Assembly: GCA_965207885.1 (NCBI GenBank)
Contig: OZ242311.1
Span: 2,336,001 to 2,400,000, forward strand
Direction: 5' to 3'
Length of the DNA stretch: 64,000 nt
From: Candidatus Latescibacterota bacterium
Lineage (GTDB): Bacteria > Latescibacterota > UBA2968
Below the pieces are notes generated by a model. The model made no database searches. It was given only the letters and a program-made list of their open reading frames with translations, and had not been told where the DNA came from. The translations under genes and the position numbers were made by a program. Shown in pieces: positions 1 through 36,191 of this stretch. Within the stretch, counting starts at the first letter, position 1, and each line of letters starts with the position of its first letter.

Positions 1-2403
1 ACGTTCGTTGAGCTCGAGATGAAACGCTTCGGTCAGATCCTCGGTCACGATCTCGACCGGCTCCGCACCTTCCTCGATTCGGAAGGTCCACTTGAGCTCA
101 TACTCGTCGCCGGGCTGAACCGCACATGTGGCGGGGAAGTGCAGTCCGTCAAGGTACTGCCACTCCTCGGCGTCAGACGTCCGGACCTGCCAGGCGACGG
201 CCAGTAAATTCGCCTCGAGGAGTGAGAACTCGGCCTCGCCCAACACCAGATCCTGCGTCCAGCTCTGCTCCGATCCCCGGCTGGCGCAGACCGGCCCGTC
301 GGTCCGGGCTGCAATAAGCGTCTGGAACGGAGCTAGGTCAACGTTCGCGTCGATACTCCCGGCGTCCCCTGTTTCGGGATCGAGGACTGTGTTGACGTCA
401 GCAGGCAAGGGCACGGACACGCGCTCCGTTCCCTGGTTGTAGAGGAACAGCAGCGGCTCGCCATCGAACACCCGCCGACTTGCCCGCACGGAGGACGGCA
501 TCTCGGGCAGGGCCCGGAATTCGCGTGGAATGACGGCATCGAGGGCATTCCTCAGCGGGTCCCGGGCGTCGGGTGGCAGGTCGTTGCTCACGATCCAGGT
601 CACGCGATCCCGGCCGCAGAGATGTGTGCCCGTCCCCTCCTGGAGTGCGGCGGCCGCTTCACGCCCCTCGTTGTCCGGCAGTGCCGAGAGATGATCGGTC
701 ACTCGTTTGAGGAGCGCGGGATCGCCTTCCGCCCAGCCGGGCACGCTGTTGACGAAGACCGTGCGTCCCCCGGCTTCCAGGAAACCTGCCAGCTTCTCTG
801 CGGTCTTCCGAGTCAGGCAAGTGACGTTTGGCAAGATCAGCAGTTCATACTCAGCCTCGGCGGTCAGAACGGTCCCACGGTCCACGTTCGCAGAAGCCAG
901 GACGTCCTCGAAGAGGTAGTCGTAGTCGACCCCGAGTTCCAGGAGCAGGTTTGTCACAGCAAGGAAGGCTTGCTGCATCGCCTCGAAGGCGGGCGGCCCC
1001 GGGACTCCCCGGGCCAGGTCTTCCGCACTACCCGCCCACTCACAGAACGCTGTGGTGATCGGGTGCAGGACGGCGACCTTCCCGGTGGACCGTGACAGAG
1101 CCAGTGTTTGGCAGATACGCGCGACATAGTCGCCGAACGTCCGATAGAACGGCCAGAACGGATTCTGGTGGCCGTGTGAGGGTGGATACCCGCCCGGCAG
1201 CACCTTGCGCATGCCGGCGATTGAGTAGTAGGCGCCCATGTACTGCAGGAGGTTGACACCGCCCAGGGCGAGCTTGTCGAAGATGATTTTCATCTGCTCG
1301 GGCGTGAGTTCCCAGCCGCTGCCCGTGTAGGTTTCGCAGAGCAGTCGGTCGCGTCCGAGCTGGCGGATGGCGGACCCCCCGCTCTTAGCGGAGACCATGA
1401 AGTGGTCGGCCTCGTGGTTCAGTCGAGGGAAGATGGCGTCGATCCCGGGGATGTCGAGCCAGCGGAGGCACCGGTAGAAATCTCCGAAGAAGAGAATGTT
1501 GTGGCGGAAAAGCTCCTCCCCCGAAAGGTGTCCCGTGAGCGTTAGCCCATGCTCTCGGCACCACTCCGCGCACTGCCGGTAGTAGGCGCTCTCCAGGCGG
1601 CCGGTCAGGTAGTGCCAGTAGTCGCACCTGATTCTCCGGTAATCTCCCACGTTTGCCAGCAAGCTCGGGAGGTGCGCCGCGACGTCATAGCCATGGCGCT
1701 CAAGAAACGTTTCGCGCATGCCATGAGTCCAGGGGAGAGGGCGCTCGGACTCGCCGTAGAAGCCGGCCAGGCAGTACGACACCTCATCCGTAAAGAGGCC
1801 GGCAATCGTCTTGCCCAGCTCTCCGGGGAAACGGCTACGGTAGGCTTCATGAGTGAGCTCGATGAATGCCCGTACCGTCTCCGGGTCGGAAACATCGCCG
1901 TAGCCCTCTTGCCCCCAGCAGAAGGGCGACCACTGCGCAAAAGGGCACACCCCATTCTGTGGCGTCTCGTGGAAGACGGTCGCTTTGCCCGATTCGTCCA
2001 CGCATTGCCATGCAGCGTGATCGTCCTGGGGTCCATGCTCCGATGCCTGATCGTCGCTCGTCACCACGAGCATGCGACGATCGGGGTTGTCGCGGATCAG
2101 GTACCCGCCTGCGGCGCCGCTGGGCCAGTTGTATTCGTCATAGATCCAGAAGCGCATGCCGTGCTTCCTAGCTTCATCGACAGCCCAGCCGATGGCCTCG
2201 AACATTTCCTCGGACAGGTAATCGACCGGGAAACCGTACATGGGGTGGATGTAGAAATCGAGGATGCCCGCGTCCCTGAAGTCCCGTACCTGTCGGCGCA
2301 CCTCGTCTTCCTCAAGCGGGGCGTTCCAGAACCACATGATGTGCGGACGGTAGTCGTCCCCAGGTGTGGCGAACTGCTCGATGAAGTCGTTGCTCAGGGG
2401 CAT
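1..2403 (-). CDS. Glycoside hydrolase family 106 (alpha-L-rhamnosidase-like), 3' end runs off the window
   Basis: Absent from the ORF track because no stop lies in the window. Manual translation from ATG 2403 (RBS GAGAGGTG) gives MPLSNDFIEQFATPGDDYRPHIMWFWN...IHPMYG...WIYDEYNWPSGAAGG, typical GH106 N-terminal motifs. Only the two ends were translated by hand. Confidence 0.75.
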   Translation of the reverse strand, partial: MPLSNDFIEQFATPGDDYRPHIMWFWNAPLEEDEVRRQVRDFRDAGILDFYIHPMYGFPVDYLSEEMFEAIGWAVDEARKHGMRFWIYDEYNWPSGAAGGYLIRDNPDRRMLVVTSDDQASEHGPQDDHAAWQCVDESGKATVFHETPQNGVCPFAQWSPFCWGQEGYGDVSDPETVRAFIELTHEAYRSRFPGELGKTIAGLFTDEVSYCLAGFYGESERPLPWTHGMRETFLERHGYDVAAHLPSLLANVGDYRRIRCDYWHYLTGRLESAYYRQCAEWCREHGLTLTGHLSGEELFRHNILFFGDFYRCLRWLDIPGIDAIFPRLNHEADHFMVSAKSGGSAIRQLGRDRLLCETYTGSGWELTPEQMKIIFDKLALGGVNLLQYMGAYYSIAGMRKVLPGGYPPSHGHQNPFWPFYRTFGDYVARICQTLALSRSTGKVAVLHPITTAFCEWAGSAEDLARGVPGPPAFEAMQQAFLAVTNLLLELGVDYDYLFEDVLASANVDRGTVLTAEAEYELLILPNVTCLTRKTAEKLAGFLEAGGRTVFVNSVPGWAEGDPALLKRVTDHLSALPDNEGREAAAALQEGTGTHLCGRDRVTWIVSNDLPPDARDPLRNALDAVIPREFRALPEMPSSVRASRRVFDGEPLLFLYNQGTERVSVPLPADVNTVLDPETGDAGSIDANVDLAPFQTLIAARTDGPVCASRGSEQSWTQDLVLGEAEFSLLEANLLAVAWQVRTSDAEEWQYLDGLHFPATCAVQPGDEYELKWTFRIEEGAEPVEIVTEDLTEAFHLELNER

Positions 2404-2413
2404 CTATCACCTC

Positions 2414-3811
2414 TCAGTCATTTTCGAATAATTCCGTCAGTATTGCCACCGTCGCTTCGACGATGCGCTCCAACGAGTCCGGCGCAAACTTGGCCCAGTA
2501 GGTGCAGTTGGCGTTGGTTTCGTGCCCCGGTCTTGCGCAGGCGTCGCTCGTGGGGAGGTAGCCGACGTATTGCGTGGACATATGAGCGATGAAGGTGAGC
2601 TTCGCAGGCGACCTGGTCTTAATCTCCAATTGACCTTCCACGAACGGCTCGCCCGGCAGAGAAATGATAGCCATGTCGCCGATGCGGAAGACCTGGATTT
2701 CATACATGAATTGCGGCTCGCGATTGCGGCAAAGCTCGATGCTTTTCGTTGACGCGGCATGAAACCATGTGGGATCTACTTCGCCGTTGTCTTGTAGTTT
2801 CAGCGTTGGGTATTCGGTCAGAATGCGGTTGACCTGGTCTTGCCGATCGTTGGGAATATCGCGATACGCCAGAGGGACTTTTTTGATACGCCAATCGATC
2901 GAATCAATGTCTGCAAAGCTCAGCGATTCGATGACGGCCTGTGTGGTGTCCGCCAATTCATTCCCCATGCGCATGTGGTCAGGCGTGAAGTTGGGCGTAA
3001 AGGCAGGCCATGGATTGACGTTGCCACAACATCCGTTGATGACCAGGGGCGGGCACATCAGACTGTTTTGGTCTTTGACTTTTGCGCTCCACGCGCCGGG
3101 CCAGTCGGCGCAGACGGTATTTTTTTCCCGAGCAAACACATTGACCGGATGACAGGTAAAGTGCAGCAGCATCGCGGCCGTGTCACCCTCGGCCGATTGC
3201 GCGCACCACACACCCACCTGTGGGTCGGCAGGGCCTTCCATGTAAACGATGTCCGTCGGCCCCAGGGGTTTGGCGTCGCTGGTGAAGGGCCACGGCATGC
3301 AGATATTGCCGCCGCGCATCACGCCACGTCGATTAAAGGCCAGGTCGTCGCGAACGGCATGCCCCATGGCAACCTGCACTGGCGTTAACGCATCGTTCGC
3401 TTCCTGGATCGCGCGGGTCGCGCCGGCGACTGCCTGCTTCGTATACGCGGCTTCACTACCGGTGATGTGCTCCTGATCAGGTCTCAGATCAAGCGGGAAA
3501 TCCGGGTCGAGCATGAGGGCGCCGCAACTCGGCGCCGAGTGATTCTGCAACGAATGCACCATCACGGCGTGGGGTTCAAAGCCCAGCGCGACAGCGCTTT
3601 CTCGAATGGCCCGGGTGTAGGGCAAAGTAACCGCCAACGTGTCTAATGTGATGATACACAACTTCGCGTTTTTGGCCTGGGCGACCATCACTTTGGCGTA
3701 AAGTGGATCGAGGATTTTTTGAGCAGGGCGGTGTTCTCCCATGCCGCTTCCGGCCAGATGCGTGCCCAAAGGCGGTGTGATGTCGATGGCGGCTTGGCCT
3801 ATTTGAAGCAT
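2414..3811 (-). CDS. Neutral/alkaline ceramidase N-terminal-domain family hydrolase
   Basis: DITPPLG, DPLYAK, HSLQNHSAP, FTCHP, NGCCGNVNP and PGEPF motifs; start trimmed to MLQIGQ at 3811. Confidence 0.7.
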   Translation of the reverse strand: MLQIGQAAIDITPPLGTHLAGSGMGEHRPAQKILDPLYAKVMVAQAKNAKLCIITLDTLAVTLPYTRAIRESAVALGFEPHAVMVHSLQNHSAPSCGALMLDPDFPLDLRPDQEHITGSEAAYTKQAVAGATRAIQEANDALTPVQVAMGHAVRDDLAFNRRGVMRGGNICMPWPFTSDAKPLGPTDIVYMEGPADPQVGVWCAQSAEGDTAAMLLHFTCHPVNVFAREKNTVCADWPGAWSAKVKDQNSLMCPPLVINGCCGNVNPWPAFTPNFTPDHMRMGNELADTTQAVIESLSFADIDSIDWRIKKVPLAYRDIPNDRQDQVNRILTEYPTLKLQDNGEVDPTWFHAASTKSIELCRNREPQFMYEIQVFRIGDMAIISLPGEPFVEGQLEIKTRSPAKLTFIAHMSTQYVGYLPTSDACARPGHETNANCTYWAKFAPDSLERIVEATVAILTELFEND

Positions 3812-4026
3812 AGCACAATATCCCTGAAATGACCGAGTTTTTGGCTGAATCAGTTCAATATAATCTTTGTCTATAGTGAGTAATACTGAAATCGAACTGG
3901 GTAAGGCAAGCGTTATTTGAATTATAACTTGCACCATCACCCCATCGGGGATAAATTGCGGACGAAAGTCGTTTAACCTATCCATATTGTCATAGGAATA
4001 AAAGCCGAGATCACTAATTATCTTTT

Positions 4027-4863
4027 ATGCACTGGCTCTTTTTTTCTATTATCCTCGATTTCGGTTTTGTCCAGCTATTCAAGCTCGGACAAAGACGCGG
4101 CTGTTACGCGCCAGTGGTTGTTTCTGTAAACTACCTCGTCCTGGCTCTCGCAATTGCCATTTATCTCTTTGTTATTGATGCGTGGACATTTCCCCGTCTT
4201 GCCCTTTACACGGGGTTGGGAACTGGTACGGTTTTTATCAGTTCCATGTTGCTGATGAATCACGCGCTTACCCTCGCGCCCATCGGTTCTGTTGTTACGG
4301 CTTTCAGAATGTCCATTGTCATGCCTATTGTGCTGGGTATTTACCTCTGGGGCGAATCCATGGCCTCAACGCAGTTTGTGGGGCTGCTTCTCGCGCTCAG
4401 TGCGCTGGCACTTATGACTTCTCATCCGGGCAGAACCGCGCAGATCAGAGGAATACAAGCATTTGGTTTGCTCATCGCGGTTTGTTTCTGTCAGGGCATA
4501 AGCCATACGTGCTTGCGATCTGTTCACTACAATGGTCTCGATCCCGTCTATCTGCATGTCTTGATGTTCATCGGAGCAACCGCTGGACTGATAGGTGGTG
4601 TTGTAATCATTCTCAAAAAACACCGGCCACAAGGACCTGCGATCAAACTCGGCATTTTTATTGGTCTTTACAATGTTCTGGCGCTTTGTGTCATTATGAC
4701 CGCATTAAGTAAGTTGCCGGGCACGCTTTTTTTTCCGACATTGGGATGTAGTGTTGTTGTGCTGGATAATCTCTTTGCCCATTTCTACTGGAAAGAACGC
4801 CTCGCCCGACCCGCTATTGCCGGTGTGGGGATCGCTGTTCTTGCCGTTCTTCTGGTTTTGTGA
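4027..4863 (+). CDS. DMT/EamA family transporter
   Basis: 278 aa, ~10 hydrophobic segments in two repeated halves. Confidence 0.75.
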   Translation: MHWLFFSIILDFGFVQLFKLGQRRGCYAPVVVSVNYLVLALAIAIYLFVIDAWTFPRLALYTGLGTGTVFISSMLLMNHALTLAPIGSVVTAFRMSIVMPIVLGIYLWGESMASTQFVGLLLALSALALMTSHPGRTAQIRGIQAFGLLIAVCFCQGISHTCLRSVHYNGLDPVYLHVLMFIGATAGLIGGVVIILKKHRPQGPAIKLGIFIGLYNVLALCVIMTALSKLPGTLFFPTLGCSVVVLDNLFAHFYWKERLARPAIAGVGIAVLAVLLVL

Positions 4864-4875
4864 AAGGAATTCTCC

Positions 4876-6213
4876 ATGAGCCGACCCAATATTGTTTTTG
4901 TATTCGCCGATGACTGGGGTTGGGGCGATTTGAGTTGTTATGGACATCCTCATGCTAAGACGCCAAATCTGGATCGCCTCGCCGCACAGGGGACCCTTTT
5001 CTCTCAGTTCTATGTTTGCTCCGGGGTTTGCTCCCCAAGCCGCGCCGCTGTTATGACCGGGCGTTTTCCAGCGCACTGGGGCATACACGGGCATTTTGCA
5101 CAGCACGCGCAGAATGCGGCACGGGGTATGCCCAATTTTCTCGATCCCGATGCAGTGACGGTTACTGGTCTGTTGCAACAAAGTGGGTACGCCGTGGGGC
5201 ACTTTGGCAAGTGGCATCTCGGTAGCGGCGCGGGCGCGCCTGCGCCTTATGATTACGGTATTGACGAGAGTAAAATTAATGTGGGCAATGGACCGTTGCT
5301 CAATTTTACCGATTTGGAGACTGGCGAGGGTCGCAGCCGATCTACAGAGGTGATTATTGATGAAACGATTGGTTTTATTGAGCGCAATAAAGACGAGCCT
5401 TTTTTTGTTCAGGCATGGCTCAACGATACCCACGCGATTCTCGATCCCACAGAAGAACAGATGGAGCCCTACAAGCAATTCACGGCGAATGGCCTGGAAG
5501 ATAAACACAAGGGCGCGTTGCGGATTTACTATTCGGTTGTCACCGATGTGGACCGCCACATTGGTCGCCTGATGGATAAACTCGACGAATTGAATTTGGG
5601 CGATAATACCATCGTGATTTTTTCTGCGGACAATGGTCCCGAGGATATTCACATTCGCAATGCCACGCATAGCGGTGTCGGTTCTTCCGGTCCTTTTCGC
5701 GGTCGCAAACGCAGTCTCTATGAAGGCGGTGTGCGTACGCCTTTTATTATTCGCTGGCCCAATGGTGTTTCTGCCGGGCGCATTGATAACGATACGCCGC
5801 TTTGTGCGGTTGATTTTTTGCCCACTTTTTGCAATTTGGCTGGTATTGATATCGATGGTTTGGTGCTCGACGGGGAAGATATGACCGATGCGCTGCGCGG
5901 TCGCAGTGTTATTAGGAAAAAACCGCTTATGTGGGAATGGCGTTTCAATATTGCCGGTCATTGTTTGCACAAAAGTCCCATGCTTTCCATCCGCGAAGGC
6001 GATTGGAAATTGCTTTTGAATCCCGACCGCAGCCGCGTCGAACTCTTCAATATTCCACGAGATCCGATGGAACTCAACAATCGCTCAGAATATATGCCAG
6101 AGCGCGTCGCGGAAATGGCTGATCGGGTGCTGGCATGGCAAGATACCCTGCCCGAAGGTCCGATTGATGCCAATGCGGGGTCGAATGCGTATCCCTGGCC
6201 CGGCACGTTTTAG
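4876..6213 (+). CDS. Sulfatase (Cys-type, formylglycine-dependent)
   Basis: PNIVFVFADDWG, CSPSRAAVMTG, GKWHLG, SADNG and KRSLYEGGVRTP motifs. Confidence 0.95.
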   Translation: MSRPNIVFVFADDWGWGDLSCYGHPHAKTPNLDRLAAQGTLFSQFYVCSGVCSPSRAAVMTGRFPAHWGIHGHFAQHAQNAARGMPNFLDPDAVTVTGLLQQSGYAVGHFGKWHLGSGAGAPAPYDYGIDESKINVGNGPLLNFTDLETGEGRSRSTEVIIDETIGFIERNKDEPFFVQAWLNDTHAILDPTEEQMEPYKQFTANGLEDKHKGALRIYYSVVTDVDRHIGRLMDKLDELNLGDNTIVIFSADNGPEDIHIRNATHSGVGSSGPFRGRKRSLYEGGVRTPFIIRWPNGVSAGRIDNDTPLCAVDFLPTFCNLAGIDIDGLVLDGEDMTDALRGRSVIRKKPLMWEWRFNIAGHCLHKSPMLSIREGDWKLLLNPDRSRVELFNIPRDPMELNNRSEYMPERVAEMADRVLAWQDTLPEGPIDANAGSNAYPWPGTF

Positions 6214-29668: not shown

Positions 29669-30508
29669 TCACGGAGAATCTGACCGCTGTTTTCGACCCC
29701 CTAACGTGGCGCCACCATCGATGGTCAGTGCTTGTCCGGTGATATTTTTCCCTTTGTCGCTCGCCAAAAAGACGACCATGTGACCCACATCTTCGGGGGT
29801 TTGTTCGGTTCCTAAGGGCACGCTGTTGCGTATCACATCTTCAAAAATTTCTCTTGCGGTAAATCCCTTGTATGCCGGGTTGTTGTTTTTGATTTGAGAT
29901 GCGATCATTTCCCAGGCGCGCGTCCATAGGTAGCCGGGGCATATTGCGTTGACTCTAATCCCACGCCCTGCAAGTTGGCTGGCTAAAGTTCTGGTCAAAT
30001 GAATGACTCCGGCTTTGGCCGCACCGTAAGCGGGCATGGAAACGCTGGGCATTAGCGCGGCGATAGATGCGATGTTGATGATGCTGGATCCGCGGCCGAG
30101 ATGTGGAATGGCTGCTCTGGCGGAGACAAAGGCGGTCCGGAGATTGGTGTGTAGATGCGCGTCCCAATCGTCAACGGATAATTCCGTCAGTGGGATTTCC
30201 AGCGATGCTCTGGCCGCGTTTGTATCCGGTCCTCCAATGCCCGCGTTGTTGACGAGGATGTCGAGTGAGCCGAGTTCTGTAATAATTCGATCTGTTGCCG
30301 CGTGCATGGCGGTTTCATCGGATGCATCGGCTGATAGACCTATTGCAGGCGTTTTGAGCGTTTTTGCGGTTTTTTTCGCACCATCGCCATCCAGATCAGT
30401 AATGGCGATTTTAGCACCCGCATCCGATAGGTGTTGTGCGATGGCTGCTCCAATGCCCCGCGCAGCACCTGTTATGAGTGCAACTCGATTTTGTAATTCC
30501 AGACTCAC
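29669..30508 (-). CDS. Short-chain dehydrogenase/reductase
   Basis: TGAARGIG, NNAG and YGAAK; GTG start at 30508 overlaps the upstream stop. Confidence 0.92.
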   Translation of the reverse strand: MSLELQNRVALITGAARGIGAAIAQHLSDAGAKIAITDLDGDGAKKTAKTLKTPAIGLSADASDETAMHAATDRIITELGSLDILVNNAGIGGPDTNAARASLEIPLTELSVDDWDAHLHTNLRTAFVSARAAIPHLGRGSSIINIASIAALMPSVSMPAYGAAKAGVIHLTRTLASQLAGRGIRVNAICPGYLWTRAWEMIASQIKNNNPAYKGFTAREIFEDVIRNSVPLGTEQTPEDVGHMVVFLASDKGKNITGQALTIDGGATLGGRKQRSDSP

Positions 30509-31915
30509 GGTTGTTCCTTTTCTAATTCCAATCCGAGTGTTTTTCCTTTTTGCACGGCGGGAATGCCCGCGCTCATCCATACAGGTGCGGGGGCGTCTTT
30601 GAGATAGTGGTCAAAGAATTGTTGCAGACGGATGCTCCAGTCTTTGCGGTTGTGGTGTTTGCGAATGCCGTGGGCTTCTCCGTTGTAATTGACGAGCCAT
30701 GCGGGTTTGCCCAGGCGGCGCAGGGCGACAAAGAGTTCAATGCCCTGATACCAGGGTACTGCGCCGTCGTCGTCGTTGTGCAAGATGAGCAATGGCGTTT
30801 GAATTTTGTCTGCCCAGAAGATGGGGGAGTTTTCGATAAATCGCGTGGGTGCTTCCCAGAGCGAACCGCCGATGCGACTCTGGCTTTTTTCGTATTGCAT
30901 CATGCGACTCAGTCCCGAAGCCCAGCGAATGCCGCCGTATGCACTGATCATATTTGAGACGGGTGCGCCGGCTTCGGCTGCCCGAAATATATTGGTTCGG
31001 GTGATCATATAGGCGATTTGATAGCCGCCCCAACTGTGGCCCTGTACGCCAATTCGGTCGGGAGCGACAAATCCCCGATTTATGAGGTGCGTCACGCCAG
31101 AGACAACGGCGTTGACGGCACTTTCTCCGGGGAAGCCGACTTTGTAGGGGATGTCCGGAATAAAGATCAGATATCCGCGGCTGACGTAAAATGGGAAATT
31201 TATGGAGGCGCCAGAGGCTCTTGGCGATCGGTGGGCGTGTAGTTGATGGGACATTTTTTCATAGAAATAGACCAGCATGGGATATTTCTGAGCGGGGTCG
31301 AAATTTTCGGGTTTGTAGAGAATGCCCTGCAGGGGTTTGCCGTCGAGTGATACCCATTCGACGAGTTCGGCAGTGCCCCACAGGTAGTCTTTTTGTTGGG
31401 GATTGACTTCGCTTATTTTTCGCGCATTATGAAAATCGAGATCAGCGGTCCAGAGGTCGGGATATTCTTCAAAAGAGGATTGTCTGAAGAGGAGTACGTC
31501 GGTGTCTTTGGCTTTTTGGAGGTTGGAAAACCGTTTGTTGCGCGCGATGAGTTCAGCGGGTTTGTCCGTGCTTTCGATGCGATCCCGATAGTAGCCCATG
31601 GCTTTGGTTTTGAGATTGAAACCCGATAAGAGCAAATCGGCTTTGGGATCGCGTGCCCGTTCTTCGGGGTCGAGGCGTACATATCGAAAGCGCGTTTCGG
31701 TCTCGCGTCCAATCCCTTCAGTGATATTGACGGGTGCTTTGCGCCCGTTGGGATCGGTGAGCCAGATGTCGTAGCGGTCGTAAATGAGAAATTCTTTGTC
31801 GCCTTTTGTCCACCCGGCATTGCCATGTGCGCTGGGTGGATACGGCCAGTCGTGCAATTCGTTGTGAATGGGATGGGGGATATTTTTGCTGACTCTGACG
31901 CGGATCATATTTTTG
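30505..31915 (-). pseudogene. S9 prolyl oligopeptidase family, C-terminal fragment (IS-interrupted)
   Basis: GHSWGG nucleophile, DDGAV, EAHG; in frame with the 34682-36191 fragment after removing the IS and one TSD. Confidence 0.92.
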
Positions 31916-31950
31916 GGTAGTGTCTCAGTTTGAAAATTTGCGGTTTTCTG

Positions 31951-31980
31951 TTGACAGGGGTACGGTGCGTACTTTATTAT
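31951..31980 (+). promoter_or_regulatory. Putative sigma70 promoter for the 32050 ORF
   Basis: TTGACA-N18-TATTAT just inside the left TIR. Confidence 0.5.
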
Positions 31981-32049
31981 TCAACTTAACCCGCAGATTT
32001 CGTTCGTTCACAAGAGAAATACATTCAGGATTCAGGAGGGCAACCGACT

Positions 32050-32265
32050 ATGCCAAAGGGACCAAACGGAGAAAAGCGCCCTGGCGATGTCGTATCTTGT
32101 GCTGTAACAGTAGCACGTATTGCAACCGGTGAAATAGAAGATACGAAATACAAACAGCCAGGCAAACGAAAAGGAGGGGTCGCAGGTGGGCGTGCCCGTG
32201 CAAAAGCACTCTCGCCAAAGCGACGCAAAGAAATAGCGAAAAAAGCTGCCGCCGCAAGGTGGTAG
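32050..32265 (+). CDS. Small basic IS-associated protein (histone-H1-like, putative nucleic-acid binding)
   Basis: RBS AGGAGG; GG..GGRARAKALS..RRKEIAKKAAAARW; terminator follows. Confidence 0.8.
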   Translation: MPKGPNGEKRPGDVVSCAVTVARIATGEIEDTKYKQPGKRKGGVAGGRARAKALSPKRRKEIAKKAAAARW

Positions 32266-32282
32266 CTATCAGAGCAAGGAAT

Positions 32283-32313
32283 AAGCCGAGGTCTATACGA
32301 TCTCGGCTTTTTT
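32283..32313 (+). terminator. Intrinsic terminator
   Basis: AAGCCGAG..CTCGGCTT followed by a T-run. Confidence 0.8.
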
Positions 32314-32335
32314 GTTTTCAAAAACCACTCTATCC

Positions 32336-32364
32336 TTGACAATGGCTTTTTGCAGTGGTACATT
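32336..32364 (+). promoter_or_regulatory. Putative sigma70 promoter with extended -10
   Basis: TTGACA-N17-TACATT, with TG at 32356-32357. Confidence 0.65.
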
Positions 32365-32379
32365 TCTTATGCTTCAGAT

Positions 32380-32514
32380 TAGTCACACTCAGTAGAGGCC
32401 CCGCTTGGTCGGGTAGCCTGCTGAATAGAATAGCCAAATTGTGGAGCGGATTAGCTACCCGTCCCCGGTGAATAGGTAGGGCCCTCCTCGCATCTCTCTG
32501 CGTGAGTGTGACTA
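32380..32514 (+). ncRNA. Putative structured RNA or 5' leader of unknown class
   Basis: Nested stems TAGTCACACTCA/TGAGTGTGACTA, GTAGAG/CTCTGC, GGCCC/GGGCC and CGGGTAGC/GCTACCCG directly downstream of a promoter. Confidence 0.5.
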
Positions 32515-32557
32515 CTACCCGGCATCCTTGCGCAATCTTTTCCACACACATTCATAC

Positions 32558-32662
32558 ACAAAAAAGAGCCGGAAGACTCTGGCGGAGCCTCCCGGCAAAG
32601 GCAGACACGCGAACCACCCGTTGAAAGTTTATCGCTGCATCCACCTGATTCGTAAATGAGTG
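32558..32662 (-). ncRNA. Putative ~105-nt antisense sRNA
   Basis: Minus-strand TTGACA(32697-32692)-N17-TACTTT(32674-32669); terminator GCCGGGAGGCTC..GAGTCTTCCGGC followed by a T-run. Confidence 0.45.
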
Positions 32663-32744
32663 GATTTCAAAGTAAGTAAAAACCTGCTTTGTGTCAATTC
32701 TGTTACAGGTGGATGTGGCGACTCACCACACAGAGGAGGTTTAA

Positions 32745-33377
32745 ATGTATAGGTTCATTCTTGCTGTTTTGTCGGTACTTGTGTACTCTGCTGGCTCGCC
32801 AATGCTCGCTACTGAGCGGCCTTATTTACGGACTGATAGCGGCCAAGCCCGTCAGTTGCGCTATTCGGAGATCTATGCAACGGCCTGGTACGGAACAGAG
32901 GGCACCATTAACCTTCATATAATAATGTCATGGACTCCTAGCAATTCCATGACCTTCGTGAAATGGTTAGTAGTCAACGATACGGCTCGGGATCTGTATT
33001 CTGTGACCATTGGAGACAGGGAGTACGAGTGTTCTAATGGAAATGTGATAACCGTCAAGGGGAATTGGTGGACTGATCCCTTGGAGGGCAGAAGGGTAGA
33101 TGACACCGTGGTCATTGGAGGCAGGGAGTACGAATTGCCGCGGGGGTGGATGCGGCGTGTTGGTGGGACCAACCCCGACATCATACTCCACAAGAAGTCT
33201 CCGCGCGGCCAGAAGGAGTGTCCGCGCATCACAAGCATCCGCCTGAAGGGAGACCCTAAATCTCTTGTTAAATACCTCATCAACAAAGGTGACAAAGATG
33301 TGCATGGCTGGGGAGAGGGCGGGCGAGTTGAGGTTTACCGGAAGGTATCCCGTCGCTGGAAATTGGAGATTAAATAG
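32745..33377 (+). CDS. Hypothetical exported passenger protein
   Basis: RBS GAGGAGG; signal peptide; internal repeat VTIGDREYE/VVIGGREYE. Confidence 0.7.
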   Translation: MYRFILAVLSVLVYSAGSPMLATERPYLRTDSGQARQLRYSEIYATAWYGTEGTINLHIIMSWTPSNSMTFVKWLVVNDTARDLYSVTIGDREYECSNGNVITVKGNWWTDPLEGRRVDDTVVIGGREYELPRGWMRRVGGTNPDIILHKKSPRGQKECPRITSIRLKGDPKSLVKYLINKGDKDVHGWGEGGRVEVYRKVSRRWKLEIK

Positions 33378-33395
33378 GCCACATAGCTTTAGTCG

Positions 33396-33581
33396 CTATC
33401 GCGGGATCTGATAATCCTCAATGACCGTGATTTCCTCCAAGGTGACGCCTGGTGCTGGTCTGATGGTTTTTACCAATATCTGACGCTTCTTCTGCTGTTC
33501 GGCCCGATTCTGCCTTTCAGGGCAGATTCTGGTGCATAGCACATAATAGCCAAGATACGGGCATTGCTGACACTTTACCAT
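33396..33581 (-). CDS. Small Cys-rich passenger protein (CxxC...CxxxC)
   Basis: RBS AGAGGAG; 61 aa; candidate promoter at 33769-33741. Confidence 0.5.
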   Translation of the reverse strand: MVKCQQCPYLGYYVLCTRICPERQNRAEQQKKRQILVKTIRPAPGVTLEEITVIEDYQIPR

Positions 33582-33607
33582 GACAGAGGTCTCCTCTAAC
33601 TAAAGAC

Positions 33608-33692
33608 TTGACCTCAGTACACAAATTTAGTATAATCTAAGTGTCTGGTGCCAAGGCATTCTTTTGGGGCGTGCTCATAACACGCCCTTTTC
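33608..33692 (+). ncRNA. Promoter plus ~50-nt putative sRNA antisense to the 33581 ORF leader
   Basis: TTGACC-N17-TATAAT (33608-33636); hairpin GGGCGTG/CACGCCC plus TTTT (33667-33691). Confidence 0.45.
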
Positions 33693-33797
33693 CTTGCCCA
33701 CCTCATTTTCGGCAGGCTCGTTGCGCTCTGCAACTATTCAATATTAACCGTTTTTCCCCACCCTGTCAACCATTCCCACTTAGTTTGACATAAATGC

Positions 33798-33826
33798 TTG
33801 ACAAACAGCACCTTAATCGCTAAATT
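33798..33826 (+). promoter_or_regulatory. Transposase promoter, probably leaderless mRNA
   Basis: TTGACA-N17-TAAATT with only 6 nt before ATG 33833. Confidence 0.6.
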
Positions 33827-33832
33827 TAAGGT

Positions 33833-34672
33833 ATGAATAAGTTAAGCAAAAACAAGCGGATACAGATACTTGCGATGTTGTGTGAGGGCATGTCGATGCG
33901 GTCGGTAAGCCGTGTTGTCGGGTGTTCTATCAACTCCGTATTGAAGTTGTTGGTAGATGCAGGACAGGTGTGTGCGTTTTACCATGATGAGCATGTGCGC
34001 GGTATAGAAGCAGCCCATATCCAGTGTGATGAGATATGGGCTTTTTGTTATTGTAAGCAGAAAACGGTAGAAAACGGGAATGTGGATCAATACGGTGCGG
34101 GTGATGTGTGGACGTGGACGGCATTAGAGCGAGACACAAAGTTGATCATTGCCTATGAGGTCGGAGATCGGTCTGCTGTGACCGCAATGGAGTTTATATC
34201 GAATCTCCGTGCGAGATTGGTGACCCGGGTACAATTGACGACGGATGGCCTGAGGGCGTATCTCGAAGCGGTCGAGGGCGCGTTTGGTGATGATATAGAC
34301 TTTGCCCAATTGGTGAAGATTTACGATACTGAGACGAACCAGTTGAAACGTGTGGTGATTGGAAACCCTGTTGAGAGCGATATTTCAACATCCCACGTTG
34401 AGCGTCAGAATCTCAATATGCGAATGGGGATGCGCCGGTTTACGCGACTGACGAATGCGTTTTCAAAGAAGTTGGAAAACCACATTCACATGCTGAGTCT
34501 CTACTTTCTGTATTACAATTTCGTGCGGATGCATTTGACGTTGGAGACAACGCCAGCAGTCGCGGCAGGGTTGGCAGACGAAGCCTACACAATGGGCTGG
34601 ATCGTTGACCTGGTGGATGCTCACGCACCCAAACCCAATCGACCAAAAACGTACCGCAAAATTTCAAACTGA
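33833..34672 (+). CDS. IS1-family DDE transposase (single ORF)
   Basis: N-terminal HTH (EGMSMRSVSRVVGCSINSV), DEIW, TTDG, VERQN..RFTRLT.AFSKK; stop lies within the right TIR. Confidence 0.92.
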   Translation: MNKLSKNKRIQILAMLCEGMSMRSVSRVVGCSINSVLKLLVDAGQVCAFYHDEHVRGIEAAHIQCDEIWAFCYCKQKTVENGNVDQYGAGDVWTWTALERDTKLIIAYEVGDRSAVTAMEFISNLRARLVTRVQLTTDGLRAYLEAVEGAFGDDIDFAQLVKIYDTETNQLKRVVIGNPVESDISTSHVERQNLNMRMGMRRFTRLTNAFSKKLENHIHMLSLYFLYYNFVRMHLTLETTPAVAAGLADEAYTMGWIVDLVDAHAPKPNRPKTYRKISN

Positions 34673-34681
34673 GACACTACC

Positions 34682-36191
34682 TATTTTTGACATGCTGAAC
34701 ATACCAGTTTTTGTGGATGCGATCCCACCAGTAGATGTATTTGGACTCGGGTGAAAGGGTGGGACGCGTCTGCATTTTGGTGAGTACGCGCATTGCTTCA
34801 CCGGTTTTTATGTCGATCAAATAGCTGTCGTAATAAGCCGGCGAATCCCACGAAATGAGTTGTCGATAGGGGAGAATCGAATAGCCTATCGCGACATCGG
34901 CATTGCCCTCGCTTCCCAGACGAATATTGGGAATGGTTTCTGTGGCGAGTTGAACGATTTTGCCATTGTTGAGGTGAAAGACGGCGCGATATGTGCGTTC
35001 GCGTTCCTCTTTGGCATCTTTGAGTTGCATGGGTTGGAGATAGGGGTCTTTCCAGTTCCAGATATCGACTGCGACTTTTTCGTCGTCGGGCGTGTCGTCC
35101 TCTGCTTCCACTTCTGGTCTGGAGGCGGTGCCAAAAAAGAGGCGCTTGCCATTTTTGGAAAAGGAGAGGTTGGCGTGTTCGCTGACCCACCAGTTTGGGG
35201 GTATGCCCTTAGTTCCAGATCGGGCGATTTCTTTTGCCTTATTGCGCGAGCCAACGGGCCAGTAATAGAGGGCGTATTCCTGTTGCTCTGCGTTAAAGCT
35301 GTCGCGGTTGGCAATAAATGCGAGATGGAGACTGGATTCGTCGGTGGTGATTTTTTTGTAATCGCCCGCGCCCGTGAGTATGGCTGTGGTGTCGCCCGTG
35401 CTGGTGCGAATGGCGTAGATGCCATCGGCTGTGCTGTCTTTGTTGGCGGCGACAAAAATGAGATACGAACCGCTTTCTGTGAAGGCGTAGGAGATTACGT
35501 GGTTATATCGCGTTTCAGCACTGGTCTGGAGGTTGCGGAGAACGAGTGTGGTGCCTTCGGCTTTTTTGCGTTTTTTCTTTTTGGGATCTTTCGGTTCTTC
35601 TTTTTTGGCTTCTTCAGGTCCTGGCTTTTGCTCGGGCTGTTTTTCGGGTTTGGATGTTTGCTCTTCCTTTTTTTCAGGTTCGGGTGCTTTTTTCTTTTTT
35701 TTCACAGTACTGTCTTTTTTGGCGATTTCTTTTTCCAGCAAATAAGCGACCCATCCTCCGTTTTCTTTGGGTAGTTTGAAGGATTTGACGCGGGTGGCTT
35801 TAAAGATATCTCCCGTGGCGAGGGTGATGATGCCAAGTGAGTCTTTGGGCGATTCTTCGGGTTTTTTCTTGTCGCGTTTTGCCTGTTGTACCGAGTCTTT
35901 GAAGGCTTTGATGAGGGTGACGATATAACGCGAATCTCTGGTGAATCGAATGGCTTCTCCGCGCGGTATCGCATAGGAGCGGTCACCTGTGAGGCTTGCG
36001 ATGCGGAGTTCGGTGTCTTTTTCGTCCGGGCCGATAGAGAGAAAAGCCCATTGTCCGTTGTCGGAAATATTGCTGGCATGCGTGCGATTCCATATGTCGT
36101 ACACATCGTGATCCAGCGGCTTTTTCTGCTGGGCAAAGACGAGTGGAGATATACTCAAGAGTACAGATAGCAGGTATGTAGATAGACGCAT
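34682..36191 (-). pseudogene. S9 prolyl oligopeptidase family, N-terminal fragment (IS-interrupted)
   Basis: Signal peptide, QKKPLDHDVYDIW, beta-propeller-like region, Lys/Glu/Pro linker; truncated at the IS. Confidence 0.9.

Follow-up and report, generated by a model that had tools for sequence, protein, structure and literature searches.

The window, which is the whole 64,000-nucleotide stretch of DNA that was analyzed, comes from the genome of a Candidatus Latescibacterota bacterium (assembly GCA_965207885.1, contig OZ242311.1, positions 2,336,001 to 2,400,000). At 31916-34681 it holds a 2766-bp element bounded by inverted ends, which is a mobile, recently active and well-delimited member of the IS1 family of insertion sequences. 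From left to right, the element carries a gene for a small basic protein, a structured RNA, a gene for a 210-aa protein, a convergent gene for a 61-aa Cys-rich protein and the transposase gene.

Ends, copies and the interrupted host gene

The terminal inverted repeats (TIRs) are 29 nt long with one mismatch (97% complementary). The left arm (31916-31944, plus strand) begins with GGTAGTG, and its initial 20 nt or so are conserved among related elements. The right arm (34653-34681, minus strand) includes the stop codon of the transposase. The two copies of an 8-bp target site duplication (TSD), TATTTTTG, were read directly outside the ends at 31908-31915 and 34682-34689. The insertion splits a minus-strand gene for a peptidase of the S9 (prolyl oligopeptidase) family (30505-36191) into an N-terminal part at 34677-36191 and a C-terminal part at 30505-31908, and the C-terminal half was recognized as the Pfam Peptidase_S9 domain (E = 2.4e-27). 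The same gene is uninterrupted in the sponge metagenome run X9. Contigs of this run connect 31907 to 34682 and represent the empty site; the 2774 bases that are absent equal the element plus one copy of the duplication (2766 + 8).

The host genome is a single contig of 6.23 Mb and has four copies of the element, which are 100% identical across 2766 bp and have all open reading frames (ORFs) intact. Three of the four are flanked by 8-bp duplications, each a different one: CACGGATC, TATTTTTG and TGGCTTCC. A diverged relative was found in the sponge metagenome run X7, which belongs to another study, where one 2785-bp contig spans 31916-34681 fully. It differs from the element by 46 + 40 + 72 letters, with 33382-33490 swapped for 109 letters, and is thus a variant of about 94% identity in which the cargo order is the same. 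The records of related genomes and the runs holding the element point to a sponge-associated Latescibacterota as the host. Presumably, the whole unit is moved by its transposase. The set of identical copies, the empty site and the diverged variant make the element a clean, recently active example of gene carriage by the IS1 family.

The transposase and the frame shared by its relatives

The transposase gene (33833-34672, plus strand) encodes 279 aa with an N-terminal helix-turn-helix at about residues 3-36. The protein matched the Pfam domain DDE_Tnp_IS1 (PF03400) with E = 4.6e-9 and 37.2 bits, above the cut-off of 24.1. From the IS1 motif, we take D66, D138 and E190 to be the probable catalytic residues. 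The predicted transposase promoter, TTGACA-17-TAAATT (33798-33826, plus strand), is a consensus match with the same layout in related elements. Since its -10 box stops 6 nt ahead of the ATG (33833), the transcript is predicted to start at or next to the ATG and the mRNA would be leaderless. When 74 relatives were anchored at the transposase start codon, a TTGAY -35 box was found at -50 to -28 in 57 of them and a -10-like hexamer beginning at -16 to -9 in 43. A perfect inverted repeat of at least 6 nt surrounds the -35 box in 30 of the 74, compared to a mean of 9.95 in shuffled sequences. Judging from these comparisons, the predicted transposase promoter is the sole non-coding feature that is fixed across the element group. 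An element protein may bind the -35 palindrome, which lies at about 33790-33812 in the window, and the basic protein together with this palindrome may help to control transposase expression.

Relatives were collected by scanning one genome per species with the transposase, and the best 80 of the 123 found were kept for all counts given out of 80. These 80 are 45-67% identical to the transposase and come from the Alphaproteobacteria, Nitrospirota, NC10, Acidobacteriota, Chloroflexota, Planctomycetota and others. Ends were searched for with the end motif of about 20 nt, allowing up to 4 mismatches, and both were located in 50 of the 80 loci. The elements delimited in this way are 1899-5856 bp long (median 3022). 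A basic ORF is present in 61 of the 80 relatives. Of the 50 delimited elements, 39 have it inside the left end, ahead of the transposase gene and in the same orientation, with 214-2429 bp (median 1337) separating the two genes. More than 150 bp follow the transposase in 27 of the 50, and some group members have a second cargo slot there, 3' of the transposase. Copies of the left end were also looked for inside the elements, upstream of the transposase promoter. Only 6 of 47 elements scored above 95% of shuffles in either orientation, which was unconvincing.

The cargo of the relatives is of another kind than that of the window. A Pfam scan of 127 of their cargo ORFs gave HTH_3 14 times, Peptidase_M78/IrrE 10 times, P63C 5 times, HigB-like proteins 3 times, Fic and SocA_Panacea twice each, and Abi_2, GmrSD, NYN and PemK once each. 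The 210-aa and 61-aa ORFs of the window were found in none of the 80. The conserved layout of ORFs and ends, combined with the varying cargo, indicates a fixed frame with a cargo slot that often holds genes of toxin-antitoxin or defense type. As far as can be judged from sequence comparison, this is a cross-phylum group whose frame runs from the left end through the basic gene, the variable cargo and the internal promoter to the transposase and the right end. That relatives fill the slot largely with toxin-antitoxin and defense-type genes gives the frame an interest beyond this one genome.

The conserved accessory gene of the group, the small basic one, encodes 71 aa at 32050-32265 on the plus strand. 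It is preceded by a sigma70-like sequence, TTGACA-18-TATTAT (11/12, 31951-31980, plus strand), and followed by a terminator-like hairpin with a T run (32283-32317, plus strand). Both are consensus matches, and the terminator is conserved in only 5 of 47 relatives. The protein has 3314 homologues at E <= 1e-3, a few of which are annotated in their source records as 'RNA-binding protein' or 'histone H1'. In a protein atlas it was met only in 'RNA-binding protein family' clusters, with no Pfam families. Its structure model, made with 106 sequences, has three helices and a mean confidence (pLDDT) of 77.8.

The ends, the duplication, the copies and the empty site, together with the conserved frame, the variable cargo and the Pfam match above cut-off, bear out much of the original prediction, which described a cargo-carrying IS1-family element with 29-bp TIRs, an 8-bp TSD and a single-ORF DDE transposase. 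The three passenger ORFs it listed are all present; the basic one, correctly said to be common beside such transposases, proved to be a conserved gene of the group and not a passenger. It had also proposed to test whether the basic ORF and RNA motifs are fixed while passengers vary. This held for the basic ORF and the passengers and failed for the RNA motif, as described below.

The passengers and their interpretation

The structured RNA that had been proposed for the cargo was confirmed. It is about 143 nt long (32381-32523, plus strand). Its first helix, P1, pairs positions about 32381-32397 with 32498-32513, and a second helix, H1 (32408-32416 with 32515-32523), crosses P1 to make a pseudoknot. 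A sigma70-like promoter match, TTGACA-17-TG-TACATT (10/12, 32336-32364, plus strand), predicts a start near 32371, and a -10-like TATATT lies at the equivalent position in related copies. Folding of 32370-32530 gave z = -2.9. Across 29 Latescibacterota copies, the structure has 39 pairs with 94.5% of cells paired, and 22 of the 39 pairs have changes on both sides. No shuffle out of 500 equaled it, and slid controls reached 36-49% paired. Diverged copies occur elsewhere in the host genome, where a covariance model finds 9. The same model gave 98 matches in 100 loci selected with a sequence pattern and 1-8 copies in five other genomes, and RNA matches were found in 32 of 61 related genomes. A 20-position pattern was met in at least 114 stretches from Latescibacterota, Acetobacteraceae, Sphingomonadales, Caulobacterales, Kaistia, Planctomycetota and others.

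An Rfam search of 31500-35100 at E <= 1 gave nothing at the RNA, and at gathering scores nothing was found in 12 loci. In a permissive search of six loci, RF02221 (sRNA-Xcc1) was the sole family at the motif in five, with 27.6-35.8 bits compared to a gathering score of 53 bits. The alignment spans model positions 1-87, with matches in the outer helix and in the loops AAUACAA and GAAUA. In five genomes, 19 of the 21 RF02221 matches coincide with covariance-model sites. The top relative, from an Allosphingosinicella genome, reached 52.6 bits, and two of the nine copies in the host genome were matched (28.3 and 23.1 bits). The RNA is therefore read as a distant homologue of sRNA-Xcc1, which the alignment suggests and which falls short of formal membership.

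Only two of the 80 transposase relatives carry the RNA (L066 and L021), in both cases within the element ends. It is also inside such an element in L201, 3' of the transposase, which together with the window makes four IS1-family elements that carry it. Its position and strand vary among the four, suggesting that it is a repeatedly captured passenger. The same-strand ORFs 3' of the RNA vary widely, and many have N-termini that resemble signal peptides or lipoproteins. Twelve plasmid records from Komagataeibacter and Gluconacetobacter hold the RNA, and in two annotated plasmids it lies 65-80 nt ahead of a small gene. Judging from this position, the most likely role of the RNA would be to provide the gene behind it with a promoter and a structured 5' leader. 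In most family members, the 3' strand of the crossing helix overlaps a 3' hairpin, suggesting two alternative folds. A broader proposal, which we regard as doubtful, is that the RNA, with its own promoter, is a portable leader that switches between the pseudoknot and the 3' hairpin and is carried in cassette-like fashion across phyla with variable genes, mostly for secreted proteins. IS1-family cargo elements would then be one vehicle along with integron cassettes, plasmids and phages, and would take such units up into a dedicated cargo slot by some mechanism of capture. In a c4-like self-targeting test, which looked for RNA loops able to pair with the following gene, the RNA's own gene was the top target in one of 22 units (taken from 50 non-redundant ones) and the window copy scored z = +0.83, both values being confounded by base composition.

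Several arrangements of the RNA were seen outside the window. Six loci (L127, L138, L221, L170, L207 and L218) have two same-strand RNAs that flank a small ORF at a spacing of 360-490 bp, and two (L161 and L132) have two same-strand copies 2.1-3.8 kb apart. A divergent IS5-family transposase gene lies about 64-150 bp upstream of the RNA in the proteobacterial loci L145, L149, L157, L179 and L196 and in a second composite region of the host genome, L011; the RNA promoter region may be a favored insertion target. Identical RNA-plus-ORF sequences were found across species and genera of Acetobacteraceae (Acetobacter, Acidomonas, Brytella) in L177, L198, L202 and L204 and in L148, L151, L168, L191 and L222, which suggests that the unit was recently transferred horizontally. 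In genus g7 of a related family (L094-L117), the RNA is single-copy and occupies one syntenic position behind an HlyD-like gene, with a -10-like TATATT immediately 5' of it and, about 60 nt beyond the 3' hairpin, a T run. There it looks like a stand-alone RNA gene.

The 210-aa gene (32745-33377, plus strand) encodes a protein with a hydrophobic, signal-peptide-like N-terminus that belongs to a rare orphan family. Its leader contains a 16-nt inverted repeat (32632-32721, plus strand; 88% complementary, 58 nt between the arms). Eight homologues with 61-89% identity were found, and the nine aligned sequences share 42 invariant columns. A search of 167 further genomes of the phylum did not find the gene, and screening genome and metagenome contigs with single-sequence patterns turned up no related loci. 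The protein matched no Pfam, NCBIfam or PHROG family, and its AlphaFold model (pLDDT 36.2) is too poor for a fold search. A 26-nt direct repeat within the gene (33003-33028 and 33108-33133) corresponds to a 9-residue insertion in the TVVIGGREYEL region, which among the nine aligned proteins is present only in this one and its closest homologue.

The Cys-rich gene (33396-33581, minus strand) encodes 61 aa with a CxxC...C...C arrangement (C4/C7/C16/C20). It has two database homologues and a further copy in L011, and all keep the four cysteines. Pfam, NCBIfam and PHROG scans gave no family assignment. Region L011 (G000:C1:664500-671500, about 1849-5471) begins with a frameshifted IS5-family transposase gene (1849-2719, minus strand), which is followed by an sRNA-Xcc1-like RNA (about 2768-2930, plus strand), a 92-aa ORF with Cys pairs and rich in Gly, a 226-aa ORF, the 59-aa Cys-rich homologue (4184-4363, minus strand) and an IS1595-family transposase gene (4530-5471, minus strand). 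A homologue of the 226-aa protein lies 3' of the RNA in two other genomes.

In the window, a minus-strand promoter match facing the Cys-rich ORF, TTGACA-17-TAATAT (10/12, 33741-33769), predicts a leader of about 150 nt. Opposite this leader, a plus-strand match, TTGACC-17-TATAAT (11/12, 33608-33636), and a terminator-like hairpin (33666-33688) lie in 33608-33695 and predict an antisense transcript of about 50 nt. The Cys-rich gene, its long leader and the short convergent transcript could form an addiction module that stabilizes the element in the manner of a type I toxin-antitoxin system. The two diverged Cys-rich copies share this layout of consensus promoters and hairpins, both adjoin a transposase gene of the IS1 or IS1595 kind, and related elements carry HigB, PemK/MazF, Fic, Abi_2 and XRE-ImmA/IrrE genes. 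We nevertheless find such a module improbable, as the protein is not hydrophobic and is without a family assignment, only three database proteins (the one in the window included) and the L011 copy are known, and the predicted antisense RNA leaves the ribosome-binding site uncovered.

The original prediction went further and described a dense RNA-regulatory layer in which two antisense-controlled cassettes and a structured RNA make the element an integrated unit defined by RNA control. The structured RNA is real. Of the two antisense pairs, the second, described above, is plausible in principle, and the L011 Cys-rich copy is arranged comparably, with a minus-strand promoter match (11/12), a leader of about 135 nt and a plus-strand hairpin inside it. 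Where six sigma70-like promoters and several hairpins had been listed, our scan found seven promoter-like sites, five of them with 10-11 of 12 matches, and six terminator-like sites. Shuffled sequences gave 3.8 +/- 2.1 and 2.4 +/- 1.6, respectively, so this is a mild excess of consensus matches and no evidence of their use. The first cassette has a terminator-like hairpin on the minus strand (32568-32596; 12 pairs, then a T run), and no minus-strand promoter was found upstream of it. Conserved non-coding motifs in homologous elements were found for the transposase promoter and not for the RNA, the terminator after the basic ORF or 33380-33830, the last of which gave no DNA match in 60 related genomes except for 21-28 bases. 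With this lack of conservation and no RNA sequencing runs listed as carrying the element, the antisense model is rated low, and an integrated RNA-regulated unit appears the least probable of the readings weighed here. Neither the two antisense-controlled cassettes, which are consensus matches not conserved in related elements, nor an RNA layer that defines the element could be upheld.

Alternatively, the cargo could be a patchwork of trapped DNA fragments with no function as a unit, spread by the transposase and the ends alone. The RNA of the window breaks off inside the 3' hairpin and has the orphan minus-strand terminator behind it, the 210-aa gene was not met in the other 167 genomes searched from the phylum and its model is poor, and the cargo of related elements is quite different, all of which fits such a patchwork. 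We consider it unlikely, as the ORFs are intact in all four copies, the cargo order is kept in the variant from run X7, and both protein families keep conserved residues, with 42 invariant columns over nine sequences of 63-89% identity in one and the four retained cysteines in the other.

We instead favor, at a probability of roughly 85%, the reading that the window holds one of four identical IS1-family copies, which was recently inserted into the S9 peptidase gene, belongs to the fixed-frame group and carries three passengers. In this explanation, a copy would have entered the peptidase gene of a sponge-associated Latescibacterota genome not long ago. Its frame includes the gene for a three-helix basic protein, a variable slot and an internal promoter predicted to start the transposase mRNA at or next to the ATG. 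The passengers in the slot, for each of which a separate promoter is predicted, are the structured RNA, the probably secreted 210-aa orphan and the convergent Cys-rich gene with its long leader. Elsewhere, the RNA is placed as a self-promoted leader ahead of variable genes, and the window copy lacks the 3' hairpin typical of the family.

A number of results weigh against this reading. One of the four copies (L004, G000:C1:304525-307290) has no target duplication, being flanked by TTCTCCCC on the left and GGATTTCC on the right; it may have arisen by recombination between copies or by an adjacent deletion. The top NCBIfam match of the transposase, transpos_IS1, scored 74.6 bits, below its cut-off of 100. 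The transposase is a single ORF that has no frameshifted two-ORF arrangement, zinc finger or N-terminal Cys pairs, and it is therefore an atypical member of the IS1 family. The basic protein had no Pfam or NCBIfam match and only chance-level hits in a PDB sequence search, and a search with its fold gave 0 Foldseek matches and a top VIA-align Z of 3.1. For the RNA, the window copy had no RF02221 match even at E <= 10 and retains just the 5' half of the 3' hairpin, so it may be decayed. The minus-strand terminator-like hairpin and 220 nt separate it from the 210-aa ORF, which weakens its reading as a leader. Finally, since no RNA run is listed, all promoters, terminators and start points remain predictions.

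Comparison with known systems

The element had been put forward as the best candidate for an undescribed system. This did not hold, as the RNA is a relative of the catalogued sRNA-Xcc1 and elements of this kind are already known. The wider interest lies in the fixed frame with its cargo slot and in the extended sRNA-Xcc1-like RNA. A keyword search in the text of two Breaker-lab surveys, whose supplements may list it, found no passage on this RNA motif.

IS1-family ends follow a GGnnnTG pattern within TIRs of about 20-30 bp, the TSDs are 8-9 bp long, and the family includes single-ORF subgroups without the insA/insB' frameshift and the zinc finger. The element shares with the family the IS1-type DDE domain, TIRs that start with GGTAGTG and so fit the pattern, and the 8-bp TSD found in three of its four copies. 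The C-terminal motif around E190 resembles that of IS1 InsB. One subgroup of IS1 in ISfinder, ISMhu11, covers 0.9-4.6 kb; the name was not met in the literature searched. In contrast to classical IS1, the element lacks the insA/insB' -1 frameshift and the InsA-type N-terminal zinc finger. It also differs from the family in that a distinct small basic gene lies at the left end, cargo of 1.5 kb separates this gene from the transposase, and the transposase promoter is internal and outside the left end.

Integron gene cassettes likewise make variable small orphan genes mobile as units, and sRNA-Xcc1 is described from them. In contrast to the cassettes, no attC-like site or integrase turned up in the element, for which no dedicated search was made, and its mobility involves a DDE transposase, inverted ends and a target duplication. 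The Brt RNAs of Bartonella henselae are similar by description only. They are described as a structured, self-promoted family of about 200 nt with many copies, each directly upstream of a small gene, and a role both in cis and in trans has been proposed for them (Tu et al. 2016, PMC5387305). Their downstream genes, as reported there, all encode helix-turn-helix regulators, whereas those found here are diverse.

The closest likeness is to sRNA-Xcc1, for which the following background is as given in the cited reports. It is an 88-nt RNA from Xanthomonas campestris (PMC2996969). In the commonest Xanthomonas integron cassette, the RNA is found 5' of symE and faces the opposite way from the promoter of the cassette (bioRxiv 10.1101/2025.06.18.660453). 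Seven copies are reported from Xylella, of which five lie in an island at spacings of about 385 nt (PMC12189769), and in APSE phages one copy precedes an ORF6N gene. Both RNAs have the long-range helix GnCnGG.../...CCnGnC, the inner hairpin flanked by the AAUACAA and GAAUA loops, and a second stem. Both are found on mobile elements, in several copies per genome and upstream of a gene, and the tandem RNA-plus-small-ORF units spaced about 360-490 bp here resemble the Xylella spacing of about 385 nt. The RNA described here differs in that all its RF02221 matches score below 53 bits, those from Latescibacterota having 23-28 bits, and in its greater length (about 143 compared to 88 nt). Another difference is its presence in Latescibacterota, Acetobacteraceae, Sphingomonadales and other groups, which extends the relatives of the little-understood sRNA-Xcc1 to these lineages. 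A further difference is the covarying 5' extension P1, which makes the outer helix a predicted pseudoknot. The extension and the pseudoknot are not covered by the Rfam model, and they offer a concrete starting point for experimental study of the RNA's role ahead of horizontally moved genes.

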